From IMG/VR virus record IMGVR_UViG_2609459852_000009: DNA of 14,095 nucleotides, one strand, 5' to 3'. The notes below the pieces were generated by a model that worked only from the letters and a program-made list of their open reading frames with translations, was not told where the DNA came from and made no database searches. Positions within the stretch are counted from its first letter, which is position 1, and each line of letters begins with the position of its first letter. The stretch is from a virus (Duplodnaviria > Heunggongvirae > Uroviricota > Caudoviricetes). Both the position numbers and the translations under genes were made by a program. Shown in pieces: positions 4,222-11,261 of the stretch.

Positions 4222-4377
4222 TTACTCCTCAGGTTCGTAAGCTGTGAAGACAGCGACCTCCGTCTGGCCGGTTCGGATTCGTACCTCGCAAAGGTCTTTC
4301 CTCGTTACCAGTGCCGTCACTATGACGGTTAAACAGATGACGATCAGGGCGATTAACATCGCCTTTTGCTGCTTCAT
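4222..4377 (-). CDS. hokD: Hok-family type I toxin (HokD/RelF-like membrane peptide)
   Basis: Internal ATG at 4375-4377 with AAGGAG upstream gives MKQQKAMLIALIVICLTVIVTALVTRKDLCEVRIRTGQTEVAVFTAYEPEE, which I recognise as Hok family. The 70-aa track ORF is an in-frame upstream extension. Confidence 0.85.
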   Translation of the reverse strand: MKQQKAMLIALIVICLTVIVTALVTRKDLCEVRIRTGQTEVAVFTAYEPEE

Positions 4378-4555
4378 AGCCTGCTTCTCCTTGCCTTTCG
4401 GCACGTAAGAGGCTAACCTACATGTGTCTAGCATGAAATTGGCCTCAGATTAATGTTAAGCGTCTTGCAGGACGCGTAATGTTAACTGGGGCTTTTCTCT
4501 ATCTGCCGTTGGTGTTCATGCCCGAGGCAGATAGCCTCAAGCACCCGCAGCCATT
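4378..4555 (-). promoter_or_regulatory. hok mRNA 5' leader with conserved stem-loop (possible mok/sok regulatory region)
   Basis: Minus-strand GCTTGAGGCTATCTGCCTC (plus 4524-4542) forms a GAGGC/GCCTC hairpin and resembles the conserved 5' element of hok mRNAs as I recall them. Exact sok and mok boundaries are not resolved. Confidence 0.45.
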
Positions 4556-4842
4556 CTACTTAACTACCGTTACCTCGCCAATGTGAAATCAGTCAGAAAG
4601 GCGATCCATAAGAACAATAGCAAGACAATAAATCGCCATTACAGCCGTAATAGCCAGCGCACATTTGAGAACCAGCACCACAACCTCCTGTATTGGACGT
4701 ACACCAGTCCTGATGAATATGAGGCTGTCTCGTCAGTGATTCAATACAACTATTGGGTATAGTTTCTCTGATTTTTTCTGTGGAAATGGGGCTCAACCAC
4801 TAGTCATTTAATACGCAAAGTCCGACACAAGCTAACCTTCTA

Positions 4843-4866
4843 GTCCGCTTTGAGCGAGGAGCGGAC
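4843..4866. repeat. Hairpin GTCCGCT-N10-AGCGGAC at the left edge of the AT-rich island
   Basis: 7-bp perfect stem with a 10-nt loop; same architecture as the hairpin at 7332-7355; the stem contains the GTCCGCT motif found in the IS21-family termini. Confidence 0.5.
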
Positions 4867-5186
4867 CTTGTGTAAAAATCCCCATACCGGTTGATCGCGC
4901 TGAATGTTAGGTTCATAAACGACACAGGGTACATCGTAATGCTGCTCTATTGCTTCGTAAGTGATTCCCAATCGCTGCATCACTCGCTGAGAAGGAGTTC
5001 GACAACAGCCACTAAATAGTTGTGCATAGAGAACGACTGGAAAAGGCCGTAGGAACTTACAAATCTCAATTCACGGTAGAGTATGATATGGGTATTCAAT
5101 ATAAATACAGCCCTCAAAGGTTTAAATATGAACGGAAGTGTTAAAAACAATCTATCGTCAAAAAAGTACAAGCTAAAAGAAAAATT

Positions 5187-5474
5187 TTGAATTTGAATCG
5201 CGAGCTTTCTAATGGAAAGATCACTCAGGCTGATTATTGTCTATACAAAAAACTGTTTGAAGACTACATTCAGGTATTAACATTTCAACACACAAGAATT
5301 TTTGTGGAAAAAGATTTAATAGAACTATCAAATCATCGAAGTGGAGTATTCATTACAACTCAGCATGATACATTAGTAAATAGACTTGACAAAATTGATT
5401 ATGAAATTGACAGATTAAAAAACTGTTTAAATAAAAAAATTATCGATTACACAAAATTCACATCCCTATATTAG
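5187..5474 (+). CDS. Questionable small ORF (95 aa), TTG start only
   Basis: No ATG in frame and no clear Shine-Dalgarno; AT-rich; convergent with the 484-aa gene. Confidence 0.25.
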   Translation: MNLNRELSNGKITQADYCLYKKLFEDYIQVLTFQHTRIFVEKDLIELSNHRSGVFITTQHDTLVNRLDKIDYEIDRLKNCLNKKIIDYTKFTSLY

Positions 5475-5565
5475 GATTTTCTAAGAGTACGACACCGTCA
5501 CATTTAAATATTATTTGTAGAGGTAAAATGACAGCCTGACGGCGGTATTTCATTGCGAAATGCTA

Positions 5566-5590
5566 TTTAAAAGACCGCATTGAGCGGTCT
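5566..5590. terminator. Hairpin between convergent ORFs, likely terminator for the 484-aa gene
   Basis: GACCGC-ATTGA-GCGGTC stem-loop at 5573-5589; on the minus strand it is followed by TTTTAAA. Confidence 0.5.
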
Positions 5591-5626
5591 TATGTATCTC
5601 ACAACATATTACAGAATGACTTTAAA

Positions 5627-7081
5627 CTATTGTTTTAATAACATTTCAAAATCCTCATTCCAGTGCGTGTTTTGTGAAATACGGGTATCAATTTCATCAA
5701 GCAGCATATCATGAGAAAGTATGCTTAAAGGGTCATTCCCATTTTTACCAAAACGCATCGTAGTTTCTGCTATTTCCCAATCTTCTGCGCTGATTGATGG
5801 CTGTATTGCATGGCAGTAGATAGCCTTCACATCCTTTTCATGACAGTCAAAATTATTGATGCTTTCTGCAATTTTACGAGCTCTTTCAATTTCGACAACT
5901 GGACCATGTAAAGTTTCATATGATATATGCACAATTGTAGGGGTATTATCTGGAACCTGTCGTACCGCTTTGCTTAAGTGCGTTTTAATATCTTTTGCTT
6001 TTTTATTAATCGATTCCTCTGCTATACATTCCCAACGAGCACAGTAACCAGAGTGTATTCCAGTGCAAAAAATGTTAAGTATATCAACACCGTCGTCCGG
6101 ACCTACTCGTACAAGTCCTTTTGGGGCACAAAGATGAGTGTAATTTTCGCTGCTGCTAAAACTTCCGGCCAACAACGAAACCATCTGTGGAGAGTTCCAT
6201 TTAACCATGTATTTATCAAAATGCTCATTGATATTTTTCATATCTATTCTATTAATCAGTATTATAATTTCATCATTTTCTATTCTCAGTGACTTTCTCG
6301 TCGAGATATTAGACTTTATTTCATTGAAGATTTTTGCTAAAATATATTCATCTGTATCTTTTACTTCAACCTTGAAAAGCACGTCTAAAAATATGTTTTG
6401 TCTAGACTGAGTTAGAATAGGTACTAAATTGAGCCATCTTTGCCTCCATTCTCGACGCTCATTTTCAGAATATTCAGTCACTTTAGATAAACGCTTACAT
6501 TCCACAAAAAAGCTTTCTTCACCTTTAGTAACTTTTAAATCAGGAGTTTTATTTAATGCTGTTTCTGGAATAAATTCTACTCTATAACCATTGCGCGCAT
6601 ACATAATCGCAACAACTAATTCAAACAATGTTGAATCAGGTTGATTTATTTTACCGTTAAGAAATTCCGAAAGTTTTTCATCAATCCCAACAATTTTTTT
6701 TGCAAGCTCAATATGTCTTCCAACAGCCGCAAAAAAGGGAAATACTCGGGCTGATTGCGCTAACTCGCTAACTAAAGGCCGTTCATGTAAGCATTCTACA
6801 AGAAAAAGATACCATGCAACCCAATCCTCATGAAATGCCACCCTATTTTTTGGCTCTTCCATACTCTTCATTGCTTGGTCAAAATTCTTATAGGTGTTAT
6901 CTTCCTGTTCTCTGAAGTACTTGACTACATTTTTTTTGCGAGTCTCCCAAGTATCCTTTTCCAGATAAGATAAAAACCAGTCCAATGCAATTTTCGTATG
7001 ATGATGCCAGGGACTGGTATCCGTTGCTGCAAAAATCTCTTGTAGTTCTTTTGAATATTCCAATGTCTGTGTGTTAGCCAT
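5627..7081 (-). CDS. 484-aa protein with central PD-(D/E)xK nuclease-like signature; candidate defence or toxin nuclease
   Basis: ATG at 7079-7081 with GAGG 5 nt upstream; downstream hairpin. Motif E154 (FELVVAIMY), P180-D181 (TPDLKV), E194-C-K196 (FFVECKRL) at nt 6494-6622. GC content visibly lower than flanks. No named family recognised. Confidence 0.85.
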   Translation of the reverse strand: MANTQTLEYSKELQEIFAATDTSPWHHHTKIALDWFLSYLEKDTWETRKKNVVKYFREQEDNTYKNFDQAMKSMEEPKNRVAFHEDWVAWYLFLVECLHERPLVSELAQSARVFPFFAAVGRHIELAKKIVGIDEKLSEFLNGKINQPDSTLFELVVAIMYARNGYRVEFIPETALNKTPDLKVTKGEESFFVECKRLSKVTEYSENERREWRQRWLNLVPILTQSRQNIFLDVLFKVEVKDTDEYILAKIFNEIKSNISTRKSLRIENDEIIILINRIDMKNINEHFDKYMVKWNSPQMVSLLAGSFSSSENYTHLCAPKGLVRVGPDDGVDILNIFCTGIHSGYCARWECIAEESINKKAKDIKTHLSKAVRQVPDNTPTIVHISYETLHGPVVEIERARKIAESINNFDCHEKDVKAIYCHAIQPSISAEDWEIAETTMRFGKNGNDPLSILSHDMLLDEIDTRISQNTHWNEDFEMLLKQ

Positions 7082-7331
7082 TTTGACCTCATCATTGTTA
7101 ATTTATGAGATTTTACAACTTATAATGCATCTTCCAGATCGAGCCTCCAAGTAAGAAATCAGGCTAAATCAGACAGATATGTAATATATCCCTAGTCAAT
7201 TAGGCAGTCCACCCATAAATCCTAACAGTACGAAAATGGTTGGAACGTTATCCTAGGTTACTGCTCATCGTTTCCTTATGACCTCAATATATAAATATCC
7301 CAGCTCTTGCGGTTCGATTGTATGATTGACA

Positions 7332-7355
7332 GTCCGCTCTTGGCACAAAGCGGAC
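7332..7355. repeat. Hairpin GTCCGCT-N10-AGCGGAC at the right edge of the AT-rich island
   Basis: Same 7-bp stem and 10-nt loop architecture as 4843-4866. Reverse complement of 7346-7357 (GTTGTCCGCTTT) is identical to IS positions 63-74. Confidence 0.5.
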
Positions 7356-7452
7356 AACCACGCCAGATCTACCCTGTGCCATGAAAAATGAGAATGTCAA
7401 TTCACTCCTGAACTAATGCTTTTTAATCTAGTAACGTCTAAAATACCTAACA

Positions 7453-7854
7453 TTATCCCTGATAAAATGCCAGTATGCGCTGCATAACTTCACTCATCCG
7501 GCACTCGCGACAGATTATGTTTAGGCGACTGTCGTAGCGACGTATTTCTCCATCAGGTAACGACCAGATAAGGTCCGGATCAACCACAGCTGTTTTCTTC
7601 ACCTTTGCCCTCGATAGTTTTTTGCGGGCGTTTTGCCAGTCCTTACGCGCCTGTTCAGACGGGAATAACCCGTAGCCGGAGTTGTATACATCGCCACTGG
7701 CTACCAGCTCTCTGGCAAGAACGCTCATCAGATATCTAGTCGCACCTGTTTTAGCTTCCAGTTGCCGTAACGTCTCACGACCACTCTGGCGCACGAGTTC
7801 CACCACCTGCCCTTTAATTTTTTCCCGCTCTTCTTGTGTAAAAACTTTTGCCAC
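7453..7854 (-). CDS. Hypothetical prophage protein (133 aa) immediately downstream of the O-like gene
   Basis: GTG start at 7852-7854 with AAGGGGG 5 nt upstream; basic protein; function unknown. Confidence 0.65.
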   Translation of the reverse strand: MAKVFTQEEREKIKGQVVELVRQSGRETLRQLEAKTGATRYLMSVLARELVASGDVYNSGYGLFPSEQARKDWQNARKKLSRAKVKKTAVVDPDLIWSLPDGEIRRYDSRLNIICRECRMSEVMQRILAFYQG

Positions 7855-7894
7855 AAGTCCCCCTTAAAATTACCTCATGACCTGAAATCAAAAC

Positions 7895-8860
7895 TTATCC
7901 TCTGAAACCAGGCGGAATTTCTGTATCCGGTTCAGAAATATGATTCACACAACGCTGTACAGGTGAACGTCCCAGGCGGATGACCAGTTCGTCCCATTTT
8001 TCGCGGAGTTTTGACGGGCTCATGATGTTTTTTACCCAGAATGGATCCCGCTGTACCCGACCAAACATTTCGCAAATTTGTCTGTGGCTTCTGCCATCCA
8101 GCATCCGCATTGTGCGCACGTCATTGGCCCAGGCTGTCCAGTTAGGCTCTTTTGGTCGCATGATCTCTCCATCGTCGCTGGCAGCCTGTTCGTAAAGGTT
8201 CACGATCCGCCCCCAAATCCACTGCGCACACGCCAAATCCTCCCTGCTACCCCACTGGCGTTTTTTCACACTAAACACAACCGCGTCGGGGTTCCGAGTT
8301 AAAAAATCCTGTTCAGTCGTCTGCGGGTCCGGTTGCGAAGCTTCCGGACGAAAAGTGTTTTTATTCTCTGTAGTAATCTCTGTTGTATTTTCTGTAAGAT
8401 CATTGGGCCATTTTGACCCGATGACATTGGGTCGTTTTGAACCAATGGAGCGTTTCATTTTGACCTCTTCCATCGTGTCATTTTGACCTGATGGAGCGGC
8501 GCATTTTGAACCGATGGATTCGTTCAATTTGCCACCATCTAAAAGCTCGCTCCCATAGTTGATCGTGTAGAAATTGGTCATATCGCGCTTTGATTTATTG
8601 AGCTTTTCACAACGCAAAAGCCCCAGCGTTTTCAGACTTGCAAACGCGCGCTTTAACGTTGACTCTGACCAGAATGGGAACTGTTCCAGCCATTGTTCCG
8701 TTGTGTTATAAATCCAGCGAACACCATCACATTCCATACCGGAGTTGGTATCTCTCAACCAGTAGTGCAGTTGTTGCAAAACAATGGCTTCGTTTAAGCC
8801 GATTTTCATTGCCAGCTGCGTGTTTATAACCAGTGGGCGTTCAGCAAAAAGAAGACTCAT
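7895..8860 (-). CDS. Phage replication initiator (lambda O-like, N-terminal origin-binding type) with in-gene iterons
   Basis: N-terminus MSLLFAERPLVINTQLAMKIGLNEAIVLQQLHYWLRDTN is typical of phage replication-initiator N-domains as I recall them. Repeated IGSK peptide units are encoded by the tandem DNA iterons. ATG at 8858-8860 preferred over the upstream TTG at 8914. Confidence 0.8.
   Translation of the reverse strand: MSLLFAERPLVINTQLAMKIGLNEAIVLQQLHYWLRDTNSGMECDGVRWIYNTTEQWLEQFPFWSESTLKRAFASLKTLGLLRCEKLNKSKRDMTNFYTINYGSELLDGGKLNESIGSKCAAPSGQNDTMEEVKMKRSIGSKRPNVIGSKWPNDLTENTTEITTENKNTFRPEASQPDPQTTEQDFLTRNPDAVVFSVKKRQWGSREDLACAQWIWGRIVNLYEQAASDDGEIMRPKEPNWTAWANDVRTMRMLDGRSHRQICEMFGRVQRDPFWVKNIMSPSKLREKWDELVIRLGRSPVQRCVNHISEPDTEIPPGFRG
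8405..8525. repeat. Five tandem ~23-bp iterons (putative phage replication origin) inside the O-like gene
   Basis: TTTTGA(C/A) cores beginning at 8411, 8435, 8458, 8481 and 8504 (spacings 24, 23, 23, 23 bp); AT-rich stretch 8350-8400 lies alongside. Confidence 0.7.
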
Positions 8861-11203: not shown

Positions 11204-11261
11204 TTTCTGGTGACGTTTGGCGGTATCAGTTTTACTCCGTGACTGCTCTGCCGCCGTTTTT
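11204..11261 (+). ncRNA. dicF: DicF small regulatory RNA (ftsZ-targeting sRNA) with terminator
   Basis: TTTCTGGTGACGTTTGGCGGTATCAGTTTTACTCCGTGACTGCTCTGCCGCC followed by GTTTTT matches DicF as I remember it; terminal GGCGG...CCGCC hairpin plus U-run; located just upstream of dicB. Confidence 0.8.

Follow-up and report, generated by a model that had tools for sequence, protein, structure and literature searches.

Prophage hotspots are now seen as a main reservoir of bacterial immune genes. Among the nucleases that act in defence, those of the PD-(D/E)xK type include Mrr and the type IV restriction enzymes, HamA of Hachiman, NucC of CBASS, and Can2/Card1. Cargo cassettes bounded by sites are known from integrons (attC), from the pdif modules of Acinetobacter, from T4-type PeSL and from engineered exchange at heterospecific lox or FRT sites. 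Lambdoid phages also carry morons, independent transcription units with their own promoter and terminator that lie between conserved phage genes; the concept is said to come from the Hendrix laboratory, and Cumby 2012 is reportedly cited for it. Defence hotspots have been described at old/tin (between gpA and the portal gene) and at Z/fun (between the tail-fibre assembly and sheath genes) in P2-like phages, and in P4 satellites (PMC9122126; Vassallo et al. 2022; PMC13586616), whereas the mechanism of exchange with other elements was left open (Moura de Sousa et al. 2026, PMC13586616).

Here, we analysed a stretch of 14,095 nucleotides from a Caudoviricetes record (IMGVR_UViG_2609459852_000009), referred to as the window, and in particular its variable AT-rich block at positions 4867–7331 (2465 bp). 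Our main reading, with a probability of about 0.7 for the explanation as a whole, is that the block acts as an accessory cassette that can be exchanged in a fixed slot of a Qin/Rac-type prophage, and that its cargo would provide a nuclease defence. The slot lies in the early-right operon, between DUF977 and hok/sok, and two short sites, A and B, are its edges. The GC content of the block was 0.355, against 0.489 for the remaining window, a deficit that by our own arithmetic corresponds to z ≈ −13 (binomial standard deviation ≈ 0.010 for 2465 bp). In sliding windows, GC was 0.29–0.39 across ~4950–7350 and 0.45–0.58 in the flanks. Codon usage differed as well, with a GC3 of 0.29 in the gene of a 484-aa protein and of 0.42–0.65 in the DUF977 gene, the O-like gene, ydfU, hokD and YdaT. 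These values bear out the original prediction, made by eye, of an AT-rich island distinct from its flanks. The limits given there, 4870–7330, matched the homology breakpoints with related prophages (4866 and 7332) almost to the base; the edges were right, but the strongly AT-rich portion begins at ~4996, and 4867–4995 has intermediate GC and holds a gene remnant. The three elements assigned to the island, i.e. the 484-aa gene, a doubtful 95-aa ORF with a TTG start and a possible gene remnant, all exist.

The block had been placed between the replication module and the hok/ydfU/Q genes, and the annotated neighbours on both sides agreed: Cro, YdaT, the O-like gene and DUF977 on one side, hokD, rem, ydfU and Q on the other, in a lambdoid prophage of the Qin/Rac type. 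The sok antisense RNA of the hokD/sok module (4372–4546, minus strand; Rfam RF01794, 115 bits; hokD annotated in L001) is conserved backbone on the A side, outside the cassette, and so is the DUF977 gene (7453–7854, minus strand; Pfam PF06163, E = 6e-27) on the B side. Of 5426 complete E. coli genomes, 11 carried the full block, whereas 4436 matched the 3.5-kb query in part, mostly over the flanks. The block was sporadic and not universal, and at least eight other cargos filled the same slot: a 340-aa hypothetical protein, an acetyltransferase with an HTH protein, DUF4209, DUF5677, SIR2, QueH, a SAM methyltransferase with DUF7167, and an alpha/beta hydrolase. Similarity to prophages with other cargo stopped at 4857–4869 and restarted at 7332–7334. 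Moreover, a 2.36-kb copy (4859–7218) with 91.7% DNA identity was found in an island of Yersinia intermedia and at a prophage end of Serratia plymuthica, in unrelated contexts. Deviant composition, sporadic presence and a near-identical copy in other taxa are the marks of a horizontally acquired island, and the cassette was acquired horizontally from a different element of the enterobacteria. The rarity of the block beside common flanks, the other cargos and the Yersinia/Serratia copy thus support the earlier view of a recently acquired cargo. The acquisition stands, but the term “inserted” is better replaced by “swapped in”, because the slot is always occupied and its edges are fixed.

The left cassette edge is formed by site A (4843–4866), GTCCGCT-TTGAGCGAGG-AGCGGAC, in which inverted arms of 7 bp enclose an asymmetric centre that is conserved. 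Site B (7332–7355), GTCCGCT-CTTGGCACAA-AGCGGAC, forms the right edge and has the same arms and a different centre. These 24-bp sites did not figure in the original prediction. The A/B pattern matched twice in the window, with 0.04 matches expected by chance, and the general geometry comprised inverted arms of 7–9 bp and an asymmetric centre of 6–10 bp. In lambdoid and P2-like phages, at least 54 different AT-rich cargos, many of them without annotation, lie between the two sites in this polarity; the P2 Z/fun slot has the same sites, and in other phages DUF977 was the gene most often found beside B (10 of 47). The searchable literature, queried with the site sequences and for hairpins, palindromes and cassette exchange in prophage defence, yielded no description of the sites, and Rousset 2022, Vassallo 2022 and Moura de Sousa 2026 make no mention of boundary sites, hairpins or palindromes. 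Several identities were tried. Intrinsic terminators were rejected, as neither strand has a T-run, and so was a known RNA family, as no Rfam match was obtained even at E up to 1. Integron attC and dif/Xer-like sites were rejected by inspection, and a sigma-54 promoter or boxA/boxB nut was dropped, the resemblance being partial. The pairing hints faintly that the sites might be RNA or DNA hairpins under structural selection: in the sample seeded with exact arms, 85–87% of cells were Watson–Crick, with 3 and 1 compensatory double changes against ~40 one-sided mismatches.

Since comparison of prophages and phages revealed 102 pairs with the same flanks and different cargo, as well as one 984-bp cargo in three unrelated backbones, with similarity stopping at the sites each time, the sequences show that cassettes are swapped at A and B. 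Such breaks are consistent with a site-specific recombinase that would exchange A with A and B with B, without A–B deletion, in a natural recombinase-mediated cassette exchange between unrelated phages or islands. They also fit with passive homology handles, comparable to T4-type promoter/stem-loop cassettes, at which general or phage-encoded homologous recombination would swap the cargos and which would persist because their carrier cassettes spread. We hold the handles to be plausible, at somewhat less than even odds, and the recombinase to be rather doubtful. The latter is favoured by the inverted arms around an asymmetric centre and by conservation limited to 24 bp across 127–145 different contexts, strongest in the centres, although the sites were gathered with exact-arm patterns, so that the conservation of the arms is in part a product of the sampling. 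The strict polarity also speaks for it (of 163 consecutive pairs, 87 were A..B or its reverse complement, where chance would give 12.5%), as do the arrays, in which A follows B at 42 nt from start to start, and the degenerate A/B copies that flank the cassette in Yersinia and Serratia.

However, no recombinase was identified, nor is one common to the lambdoid and P2-like backbones; the dissimilarity to dif/Xer and attC sites weighs in the same direction, and 24 bp of identity may suffice for homologous exchange of the Red/RecET type. The missing recombinase in turn favours the handles. Lambdoid prophages of this kind encode recombination functions, with an exonuclease gene in the early-left region of the window (L001 annotation), and remnants of old cargo, such as a GNAT 3′ end, together with indels near the edges, look like sloppy recombination. 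Nevertheless, 24 bp is very short for RecA-dependent exchange, and homology handles leave unexplained why the centres are better conserved than the arms and why the two centre types keep a fixed order and orientation. A broader proposal, which we put forward as speculative, would make A and B an undescribed heterospecific recombination-site pair. Lambdoid and P2-like phages as well as other enterobacterial elements would have this natural cassette-exchange system in common, it would carry anti-phage genes from one genome into other, unrelated ones, and the 484-aa nuclease would be one uncharacterised immune gene in the pool.

In PD-(D/E)xK enzymes, an aspartate lies on strand 2, the (D/E)xK motif on strand 3 and, usually, a glutamate on helix 1. 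The 484-aa protein of the cassette (WP_032341362.1), encoded by an intact ORF at 5627–7081 on the minus strand, has a helical N-terminal region, a PD-(D/E)xK core at ~aa 148–240 and a C-terminal α/β domain. It shows the catalytic residues E154, D181, E194 and K196 and the α-β-β-β-α-β fold of the superfamily; the local sequence is TPDLKV...FVECKR. D149 and the four catalytic residues were invariant in 37 homologues (32–73% identical to the query), and the AF2 model had a pLDDT of 88 and a pTM of 0.89. Motif and fold are thus those of the superfamily, and the protein is predicted, from sequence and model, to be an endonuclease. Its match to Pfam Mrr_cat (PF04471) stayed below the gathering threshold (13.2 vs 21 bits, E = 0.1) and covered only aa 151–200. 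PADLOC-DB 2.0 (2023) gave no significant system, and its best matches, GajB (E = 0.0024, 14.6 bits) and AbiEi (E = 0.02), we judge to be noise. Nothing useful came from NCBIfam and PDB sequence searches with the single sequence or the profile, and PHROGs returned only phrog_37220, a family of unknown function. The Mrr_cat score and the lack of significant PADLOC, NCBIfam and PDB matches count against the main reading. The searchable literature held nothing relevant on WP_032341362.1 or phrog_37220, and the protein is not listed in the supplements of Rousset 2022. We detected no helicase, CARF/SAVED or known modified-base-reading domain. The C-terminal domain gave no informative structural or fold match; its profile retrieved 338 proteins at E ≤ 0.001, and nearly all full-length ones among the best 150 of these had 430–495 aa and the same architecture, so domain shuffling offers no clue to function. 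The family is unannotated and patchily distributed: when representative genomes from 185,579 species were scanned with a pattern, only 28 loci were confirmed, and the cluster with > 90% identity includes members from Pectobacterium and Yersinia.

The possible gene remnant proved to be the 3′ end (last 33 codons) of a GNAT N-acetyltransferase gene at ~4897–4995, minus strand, with 29 of 33 residues identical to aa 137–169 of WP_148374987.1 (tblastn, E = 3e-18). It lies inside the block common to Yersinia and Serratia and hence travels with the cassette. The 95-aa TTG ORF is also present (5187–5474), but it is really a frameshifted copy of a real 118-aa gene that forms part of the mobile unit (5128–5474, plus strand; intact orthologues P0104, P0105 and P0107). 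The ATG at 5128 and the ORF lie in different frames, the 3′ end likewise differs from the intact orthologues, and the frameshifts appear, in our own reading of the sequences, to sit at poly-A runs. The small ORF had no tblastn match in phage records, and the partner protein had no relative in the PDB. In Yersinia and Serratia, the 118-aa gene is convergent with the 484-aa gene across a gap of 143 nt, compared to 152 nt in the window. A two-gene toxin–antitoxin or sensor–effector system would conserve its partner across the family; this partner accompanies only the > 90%-identical clade, was absent beside the 45–73% identical homologues examined, and is frameshifted in the window. As E. coli retains the partner only in decayed form, the nuclease can probably do without it; the broken gene could equally mean that the entire system is inactive in E. 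coli.

Between the convergent genes, 36 nt 3′ of the 484-aa gene stop codon, we located a terminator-like hairpin (5563–5591, minus strand), AAGACCGC-UCAAU-GCGGUCUU, followed by UU and an A/U-rich tail. A simple terminator scan missed it; the minus strand of 5545–5630 folded with −20.7 kcal/mol (z = −3.07). The AT-rich region upstream of the 484-aa gene (7082–7331, minus strand) carries a GAGG Shine–Dalgarno sequence 5 nt before the ATG, and weak sigma-70-like matches, e.g. at 7211–7183. The promoter scan was not above chance, with 14 matches vs 10.2 ± 3.7 expected, which we counted against the defence reading with regard to expression in the lysogen.

Homologues of the 484-aa protein recurred in defence settings. 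In Pantoea, a 73%-identical homologue is found beside PDC-M02A/B in a P2-like prophage, in the interval from gpA to the portal gene, which is the Rousset defence hotspot of P2-like phages (PMC9122126). A 29%-identical homologue occupies the P2 Z/fun slot of phage 899, a defence locus (Vassallo et al. 2022); another adjoins Abi_2 on a plasmid, and further ones lie at prophage ends or in small integrase islands. The neighbours of 23 distant homologues were richest in AbiL, Gabija, PARIS and OLD-type ATPases, as judged by crude ORF calling and without a background control. Elsewhere, the cargos between A/B sites included PD-T7-1, PD-T7-5, ThsA/ThsB (Thoeris), DarTG, Tmn, Lamassu LmuA and SIR2. 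Recurrence in defence hotspots or islands, combined with a patchy distribution on MGEs, is the context that marks an anti-phage gene, and we infer that the 484-aa protein is a candidate anti-phage nuclease. Standing alone, it would shield the lysogen from superinfecting phages. We propose that the conserved C-terminal domain would sense an infection cue and release the nuclease on phage or host DNA. Low GC would keep the gene under H-NS-type silencing, an idea drawn from a preprint (bioRxiv 10.64898/2026.09.05.749240).

The nuclease could also serve the phage or itself, as a recombination or replication accessory of a nin-type region, an anti-defence factor or a selfish homing-type nuclease. 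Its position in the early operon, in the orientation of the replication genes, would suit such roles, as would the RusA resolvase gene annotated further along the early-right operon, beyond ydfU, in L002. We consider this improbable, since homologues occur on plasmids, in integrase islets, in non-phage islands and in late-gene slots of P2-like phages, and of the E. coli genomes with prophages that have these flanks, only 0.2% carry the gene. Moreover, at 484 aa and with two further conserved domains, the protein does not look like a minimal resolvase, and validated defence systems are among the other cargos of the slot. Even a little less credible is a decaying, non-functional relic, whose low GC would merely mark foreign origin. 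The frameshifted partner gene and the GNAT fragment on board point that way, together with the IS2/IS3-family transposases annotated in 2 of the 11 genomes, under a two-piece match spanning ~4.8 kb. However, the 1455-bp frame has stayed intact in AT-rich DNA, with 99.6–100% identity across 11 diverse strains, and every catalytic residue is kept; 118 sequences belong to the protein cluster at 90% identity, whose representative was found on 283 contigs. An exchangeable cassette with a candidate defence nuclease remains our preferred reading.

In no fewer than three different phage backbones, the sites mark exactly where exchange takes place, which makes the movement of cargo a testable problem: does a protein act on the sites, and if so which one, and does exchange depend on the identity of the centre? 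The sites could also act as a simple sequence tag to harvest uncharacterised defence candidates. The family of the 484-aa protein is, for its part, a candidate for a new nuclease defence of the single-gene kind, whose C-terminal domain has no informative fold match.

Compared to the known PD-(D/E)xK defence nucleases, the 484-aa protein shares the E...D...ExK residues on an α-β-β-β-α-β core and, with type IV enzymes, the solo gene in a cassette without a methyltransferase. It differs from Mrr and its like in sequence-level membership (the subthreshold Mrr_cat score), and its C-terminal domain was found almost only in the 484-aa architecture (338 proteins, best 150 inspected). The cassette resembles morons in being an extra lower-GC gene between backbone genes, with its own terminator-like hairpin and an AT-rich upstream region. 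Its promoter-like matches (14 vs 10.2 ± 3.7) were not above chance. In contrast to morons, it is bounded by 24-bp sites common to unrelated phages, which are not part of the moron definition. With site-bounded cassettes it shares short, conserved, partly palindromic sites exactly at the edges of interchangeable cargo and tandem B-then-A arrays; as in heterospecific lox pairs, A and B have the same arms and different centres. Unlike in integrons, the sites measure 24 bp and not 57–141 bp, each cassette has two different sites instead of one, and the GTTRRRY/RYYYAAC boxes of attC are absent, A being followed by CTTGTGT or GTTGTGT and B by GTTGC on inspection. The sites do not resemble dif, in contrast to pdif modules, and no known or adjacent integrase accompanies them, none being annotated within the 15.5-kb L001 stretch. 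The P2/P4 hotspots differ from the present slot in that the latter is lambdoid (Qin/Rac-type) and lies between DUF977 and hok/sok. Like it, they are fixed slots between conserved genes, always occupied by one or a few AT-rich genes; even near-identical phages differ in this cargo, in which anti-phage systems abound. Moreover, homologues of the 484-aa protein occupy both P2 slots, and Z/fun is bounded by the same A and B sites.

The AT-rich block at 4867-7331 (2465 bp) is real, and the original prediction was right to interpret it as acquired cargo. Its GC content was 0.355 versus 0.489 in the remainder of the window. In a sliding window, GC was 0.29-0.39 across ~4950-7350 and 0.45-0.58 outside, in agreement with the earlier hand counts that had placed an AT-rich island at 4870-7330. 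Homology with related prophages broke at 4866 and 7332, which also agrees with that placement. GC3 was 0.29 in the main gene of the block, encoding a 484-aa protein, and 0.42-0.65 in the neighbouring genes of the prophage backbone. By megablast, window 4400-7900 matched in 4436 of 5426 complete E. coli genomes, and the whole block was present in only 11; the 760 bp downstream of the 3' end of the 484-aa gene (4867-5626) were found only in those same 11 carriers. The slot, i.e., the position between the DUF977 gene and hok/sok, otherwise held, between near-identical flanks, a 340-aa hypothetical protein, an acetyltransferase with an HTH protein, DUF4209, DUF5677, a SIR2-family protein, QueH with a methyltransferase fragment, a SAM methyltransferase with DUF7167, or an alpha/beta hydrolase. 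Most of these cargos were likewise low in GC (0.32-0.45). Moreover, window 4859-7218 (2.36 kb) has 91.7%-identical copies in two unrelated contexts. One is within a genomic island of Yersinia intermedia, next to CbtA/CbeA, RadC and an antirestriction gene; the other is at the integrase-bearing end of a prophage in Serratia plymuthica. The >90%-identity cluster of the 484-aa protein also includes Pectobacterium members. Given this rarity, the alternative cargos, the cross-genus copies and the compositional contrast, the block is neither universal in related prophages nor flank-like in GC or codon usage. In two of the 11 carriers (NZ_AP041809.1 and NZ_CP048107.1), the match was in two pieces over ~4.8 kb, and the annotation of the matched stretch includes IS3-family or IS2 transposases, so the slot accepts IS insertions too.

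The window is an E. coli lambdoid prophage of the Qin/Rac type, identical (100%) to strain L725 over the part compared, 4400-7900. On the minus strand the gene order is Cro, YdaT, O-like replication protein, DUF977, the island, hok/sok, rem, ydfU and Q; on the other side lie a cI-like repressor, DicF, dicB and an exonuclease. The DicF sRNA (11205-11256, plus strand, 72.5 bits) and the sok antisense RNA (4372-4546, minus strand, 115 bits), together with hokD, rem, ydfU, dicB and ydfD annotated in the matching E. coli locus, suggest a Qin-type backbone. We also observed a strongly hydrophobic 30-aa ORF, MVLVLKCALAITAVMAIYCLAIVLMDRLSD (4589-4681, minus strand), in the conserved stretch between sok and the left edge site of the island, which could be a small membrane peptide, a toxin or a chance ORF; at 4654-4635, also on the minus strand, a terminator scan located a hairpin that ends in a T-rich tail.

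Taken by itself, an AT-rich prophage moron is nothing unusual, and the interest here comes from the nuclease family that it carries and from the pair of sites at its edges. The cassette is bracketed exactly by two 24-bp sites, A on the left (GTCCGCTTTGAGCGAGGAGCGGAC, 4843-4866) and B on the right (GTCCGCTCTTGGCACAAAGCGGAC, 7332-7355). The common pattern GTCCGCT-N10-AGCGGAC occurred twice in the window versus 0.04 expected. For four other cargo types, homology with the window stopped at 4857-4869 and restarted at 7332-7334, that is, at A and B. Directly left of A, at 4813-4842, GCAAAGTCCGAC and a 16-nt spacer resemble the 3' half of B. This half-site may be what is left of a B-A array junction, which suggests the loss of an adjacent cassette. 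Within the O-like replication gene lies a third palindrome of much the same shape, GTCCGGTTGCGAAGCTTCCGGAC (8327-8349). Of eight related E. coli prophage loci compared, six conserve it (L001, L002, L044, L046-L048). Its centre is unrelated to those of A or B, and it could be coincidental, or else an origin or iteron-type element.

Exact-pattern scans of IMG/VR matched more than 120 stretches for each site type, as a lower bound. In the 224 viral loci examined (2.16 Mb), a part of the matches picked by exact site matches, we counted 192 A and 192 B sites. Consecutive sites were arranged A..B in one fixed relative orientation in 87 of 163 pairs (12.5% expected at random), and a further 13 were B then A with starts 42 nt apart, i.e., array junctions. 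Among the 88 A..B intervals we distinguished 54 unrelated types of cargo, 0.4-5.8 kb long and mostly more AT-rich than their flanks. With crude ORF calling, the cargos matched 62 PADLOC families, including PD-T7-1, PD-T7-5, ThsA/ThsB, DarT/DarG, Tmn, LmuA, PD-T4-2 and several PDC candidates; their Pfam domains included SIR2, RelA_SpoT, three HEPN types, GmrSD and the CAP12 TIR domain. Over 127-145 distinct contexts, conservation was limited to the 24 bp and strongest in the centres, TGAGCGA and TGGCAC. The backbone genes adjoining B were chiefly DUF977 (10) and tail-fibre assembly (9), then DinI and PerC, and those adjoining A were Hok (6), tail sheath (4) and lambda P (2); 37 of the 48 B-side genes pointed into the cassette. 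In P2-like phage 899, the sites flank a distant homologue of the nuclease and the next gene, in the order B, gene, A, 18 nt, B, gene, degenerate A.

A comparison of 81 cassettes with 400-bp flanks gave 102 pairs that had both flanks in common and different cargo, and 13 pairs that shared a 984-bp cargo and neither flank; similarity ended at the sites in both sets. This cargo, tied for commonest in the viral sample (10 copies), occupied slots in three unrelated phage backbones: P2-type sheath/tail-fibre-assembly, lambdoid DUF977 and PerC/DinI. Its 269-271-aa protein (loci L094 5809-6615, L148 11714-12520 and L143 8696-9508) matched nothing in Pfam or PADLOC and is a good candidate for an uncharacterised defence gene product. 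A and B are precise module boundaries common to unrelated phage families, and the pair seems to serve lambdoid and P2-like phages as a general system for docking defence cassettes. Near-exact copies of the window variants were present in at least 1923 of 5426 E. coli genomes, with 92 places on plasmids; the examples listed all lay within unannotated DNA. The Yersinia and Serratia cassettes are flanked by degenerate A- and B-like sites (L050 7667-7745 and 10093-10150; same region of L051), so the sites reach genomic islands, beyond phages. Their arms depart from the E. coli consensus, e.g., GnCAGCT/AGCTGAC, and in Yersinia a B-like site lies ~30 nt ahead of an A half-site.

Within the cassette, the 484-aa gene (5627-7081, minus strand) has a GAGG ribosome-binding site and a terminator-like hairpin 36 nt beyond its stop codon. 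A 95-aa TTG ORF, originally called doubtful, proved to be the remains of a real gene, with intact 118-aa orthologues in Yersinia, Pectobacterium, Serratia and Siccibacter. In Yersinia and Serratia this gene is convergent to the 484-aa gene, with a gap of 143 nt versus 152 nt in the window. In the window copy, the frame of the ATG at 5128 differs from that of the remainder, and the C-terminus is shifted too; both frameshifts appear to lie at poly-A runs. The possible gene remnant turned out to encode the C-terminal 33 residues of a GNAT acetyltransferase (~4897-4995, minus strand; 29/33 identical to WP_148374987.1). As it lies within the unit common to the window, Yersinia and Serratia, it was brought along from an earlier context.

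The 484-aa protein (WP_032341362.1) is labelled hypothetical wherever annotated, and one UniRef entry names a homologue 'restriction endonuclease'. It had no Pfam domain above threshold, no match in NCBIfam or PADLOC, and no relative in a sequence search of the PDB. A homology search gave 87 clusters, drawn from Gammaproteobacteria, Bacteroidota and a small number of further groups. When representative genomes of 185,579 species were scanned by pattern, just 28 loci were confirmed. E154...D181...E194-x-K196 is invariant in an alignment of 37 members, and in the confident AlphaFold model (pLDDT 88, pTM 0.89) these residues sit on an alpha-beta-beta-beta-alpha-beta core. The invariant signature and the modelled fold together establish a predicted nuclease core at the motif and fold level. 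The C-terminal half carries a second invariant polar cluster (K361, Q375, H385, E389, E397, R400, K403, E439, T440). This half had no informative structural neighbour, and among the relatives listed by profile search it was almost confined to the same architecture.

A 73%-identical homologue lies in the gpA/portal interval of a Pantoea P2-like prophage, the P2 hotspot of Rousset et al. 2022 (PMC9122126), adjoining PDC-M02A/B, a PADLOC candidate system. There (L003 6198-7825), it directly follows a DUF4365 protein and a 375-aa protein that match PDC-M02A/B with E 8.5e-55 and 6.7e-129, so one hotspot is common to two cargo units. In two phages, Escherichia phage 899 and Yersinia phage GMG73, a homologue with 29% identity fills the P2 Z/fun slot, which Vassallo et al. 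2022 call a second defence locus. Further homologues are on two plasmids, one of IncFII type, where Abi_2 and an AAA_13 ATPase lie alongside, and one of Serratia symbiotica, amid resolvases, as well as on a small Aeromonas integrase island and at a Vibrio prophage end. Near 23 distant homologues (128 neighbour ORFs, crudely called), the commonest families were AbiL, PARIS AriA, Gabija, Septu and OLD-type ATPases. No neighbour conserved across the family was found, which argues that the protein acts alone. As with every functional statement made here on the cassette and its sites, we infer from genomic context that the 484-aa protein is an anti-phage defence gene product, at a probability of roughly 0.6. 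The protein would be a gated endonuclease that cuts phage (or host) DNA upon infection and, since a methyltransferase is absent, a type IV-like or abortive mode would be likelier than classical restriction. The AT-richness of the cassette would fit the H-NS silencing of AT-rich immune loci reported in a preprint (bioRxiv 10.64898/2026.09.05.749240). That an uncharacterised nuclease family has so consistent a defence-hotspot context raises the interest of the block.

As described by Rousset et al. 2022 and Vassallo et al. 2022, the P2 and P4 hotspots come without mention of boundary sites, as does the iLund4u preprint. A study of P2/P4 hotspot evolution (NAR, September 2026, PMC13586616) considers two possible routes, by transposable elements and by homologous recombination. 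It notes that the latter would require flanking homologous genes, which other MGE kinds are unlikely to share, and mentions neither hairpins nor palindromes. A literature search for the A and B sequences, covering few subscription journals, returned only an irrelevant fish genome paper; prior descriptions, e.g., in older P2 or lambdoid work, are possible. The arms can form a DNA hairpin (-7.2 to -8.4 kcal/mol), and covariation for it was weak, with 85-87% of cells paired and very few compensatory changes in a sample seeded with exact arms. The sites matched no Rfam family. An intrinsic terminator was rejected for want of a T-run, and neither attC nor dif fitted by inspection.

The simpler explanation of A and B is that they are homology handles, used by short-homology recombination through phage Red/RecET-type systems; we hold it tentatively, at somewhat under even odds. 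A dedicated site-specific system would agree with the arm and centre geometry, the two centre types and the fixed order, but no recombinase is in evidence, and we consider it unlikely. Other or mixed explanations take up the remainder. In both sites, inverted arms enclose an asymmetric, strongly conserved centre, and the two centre types share the same arms in a fixed order, a layout like that designed for recombinase-mediated cassette exchange.
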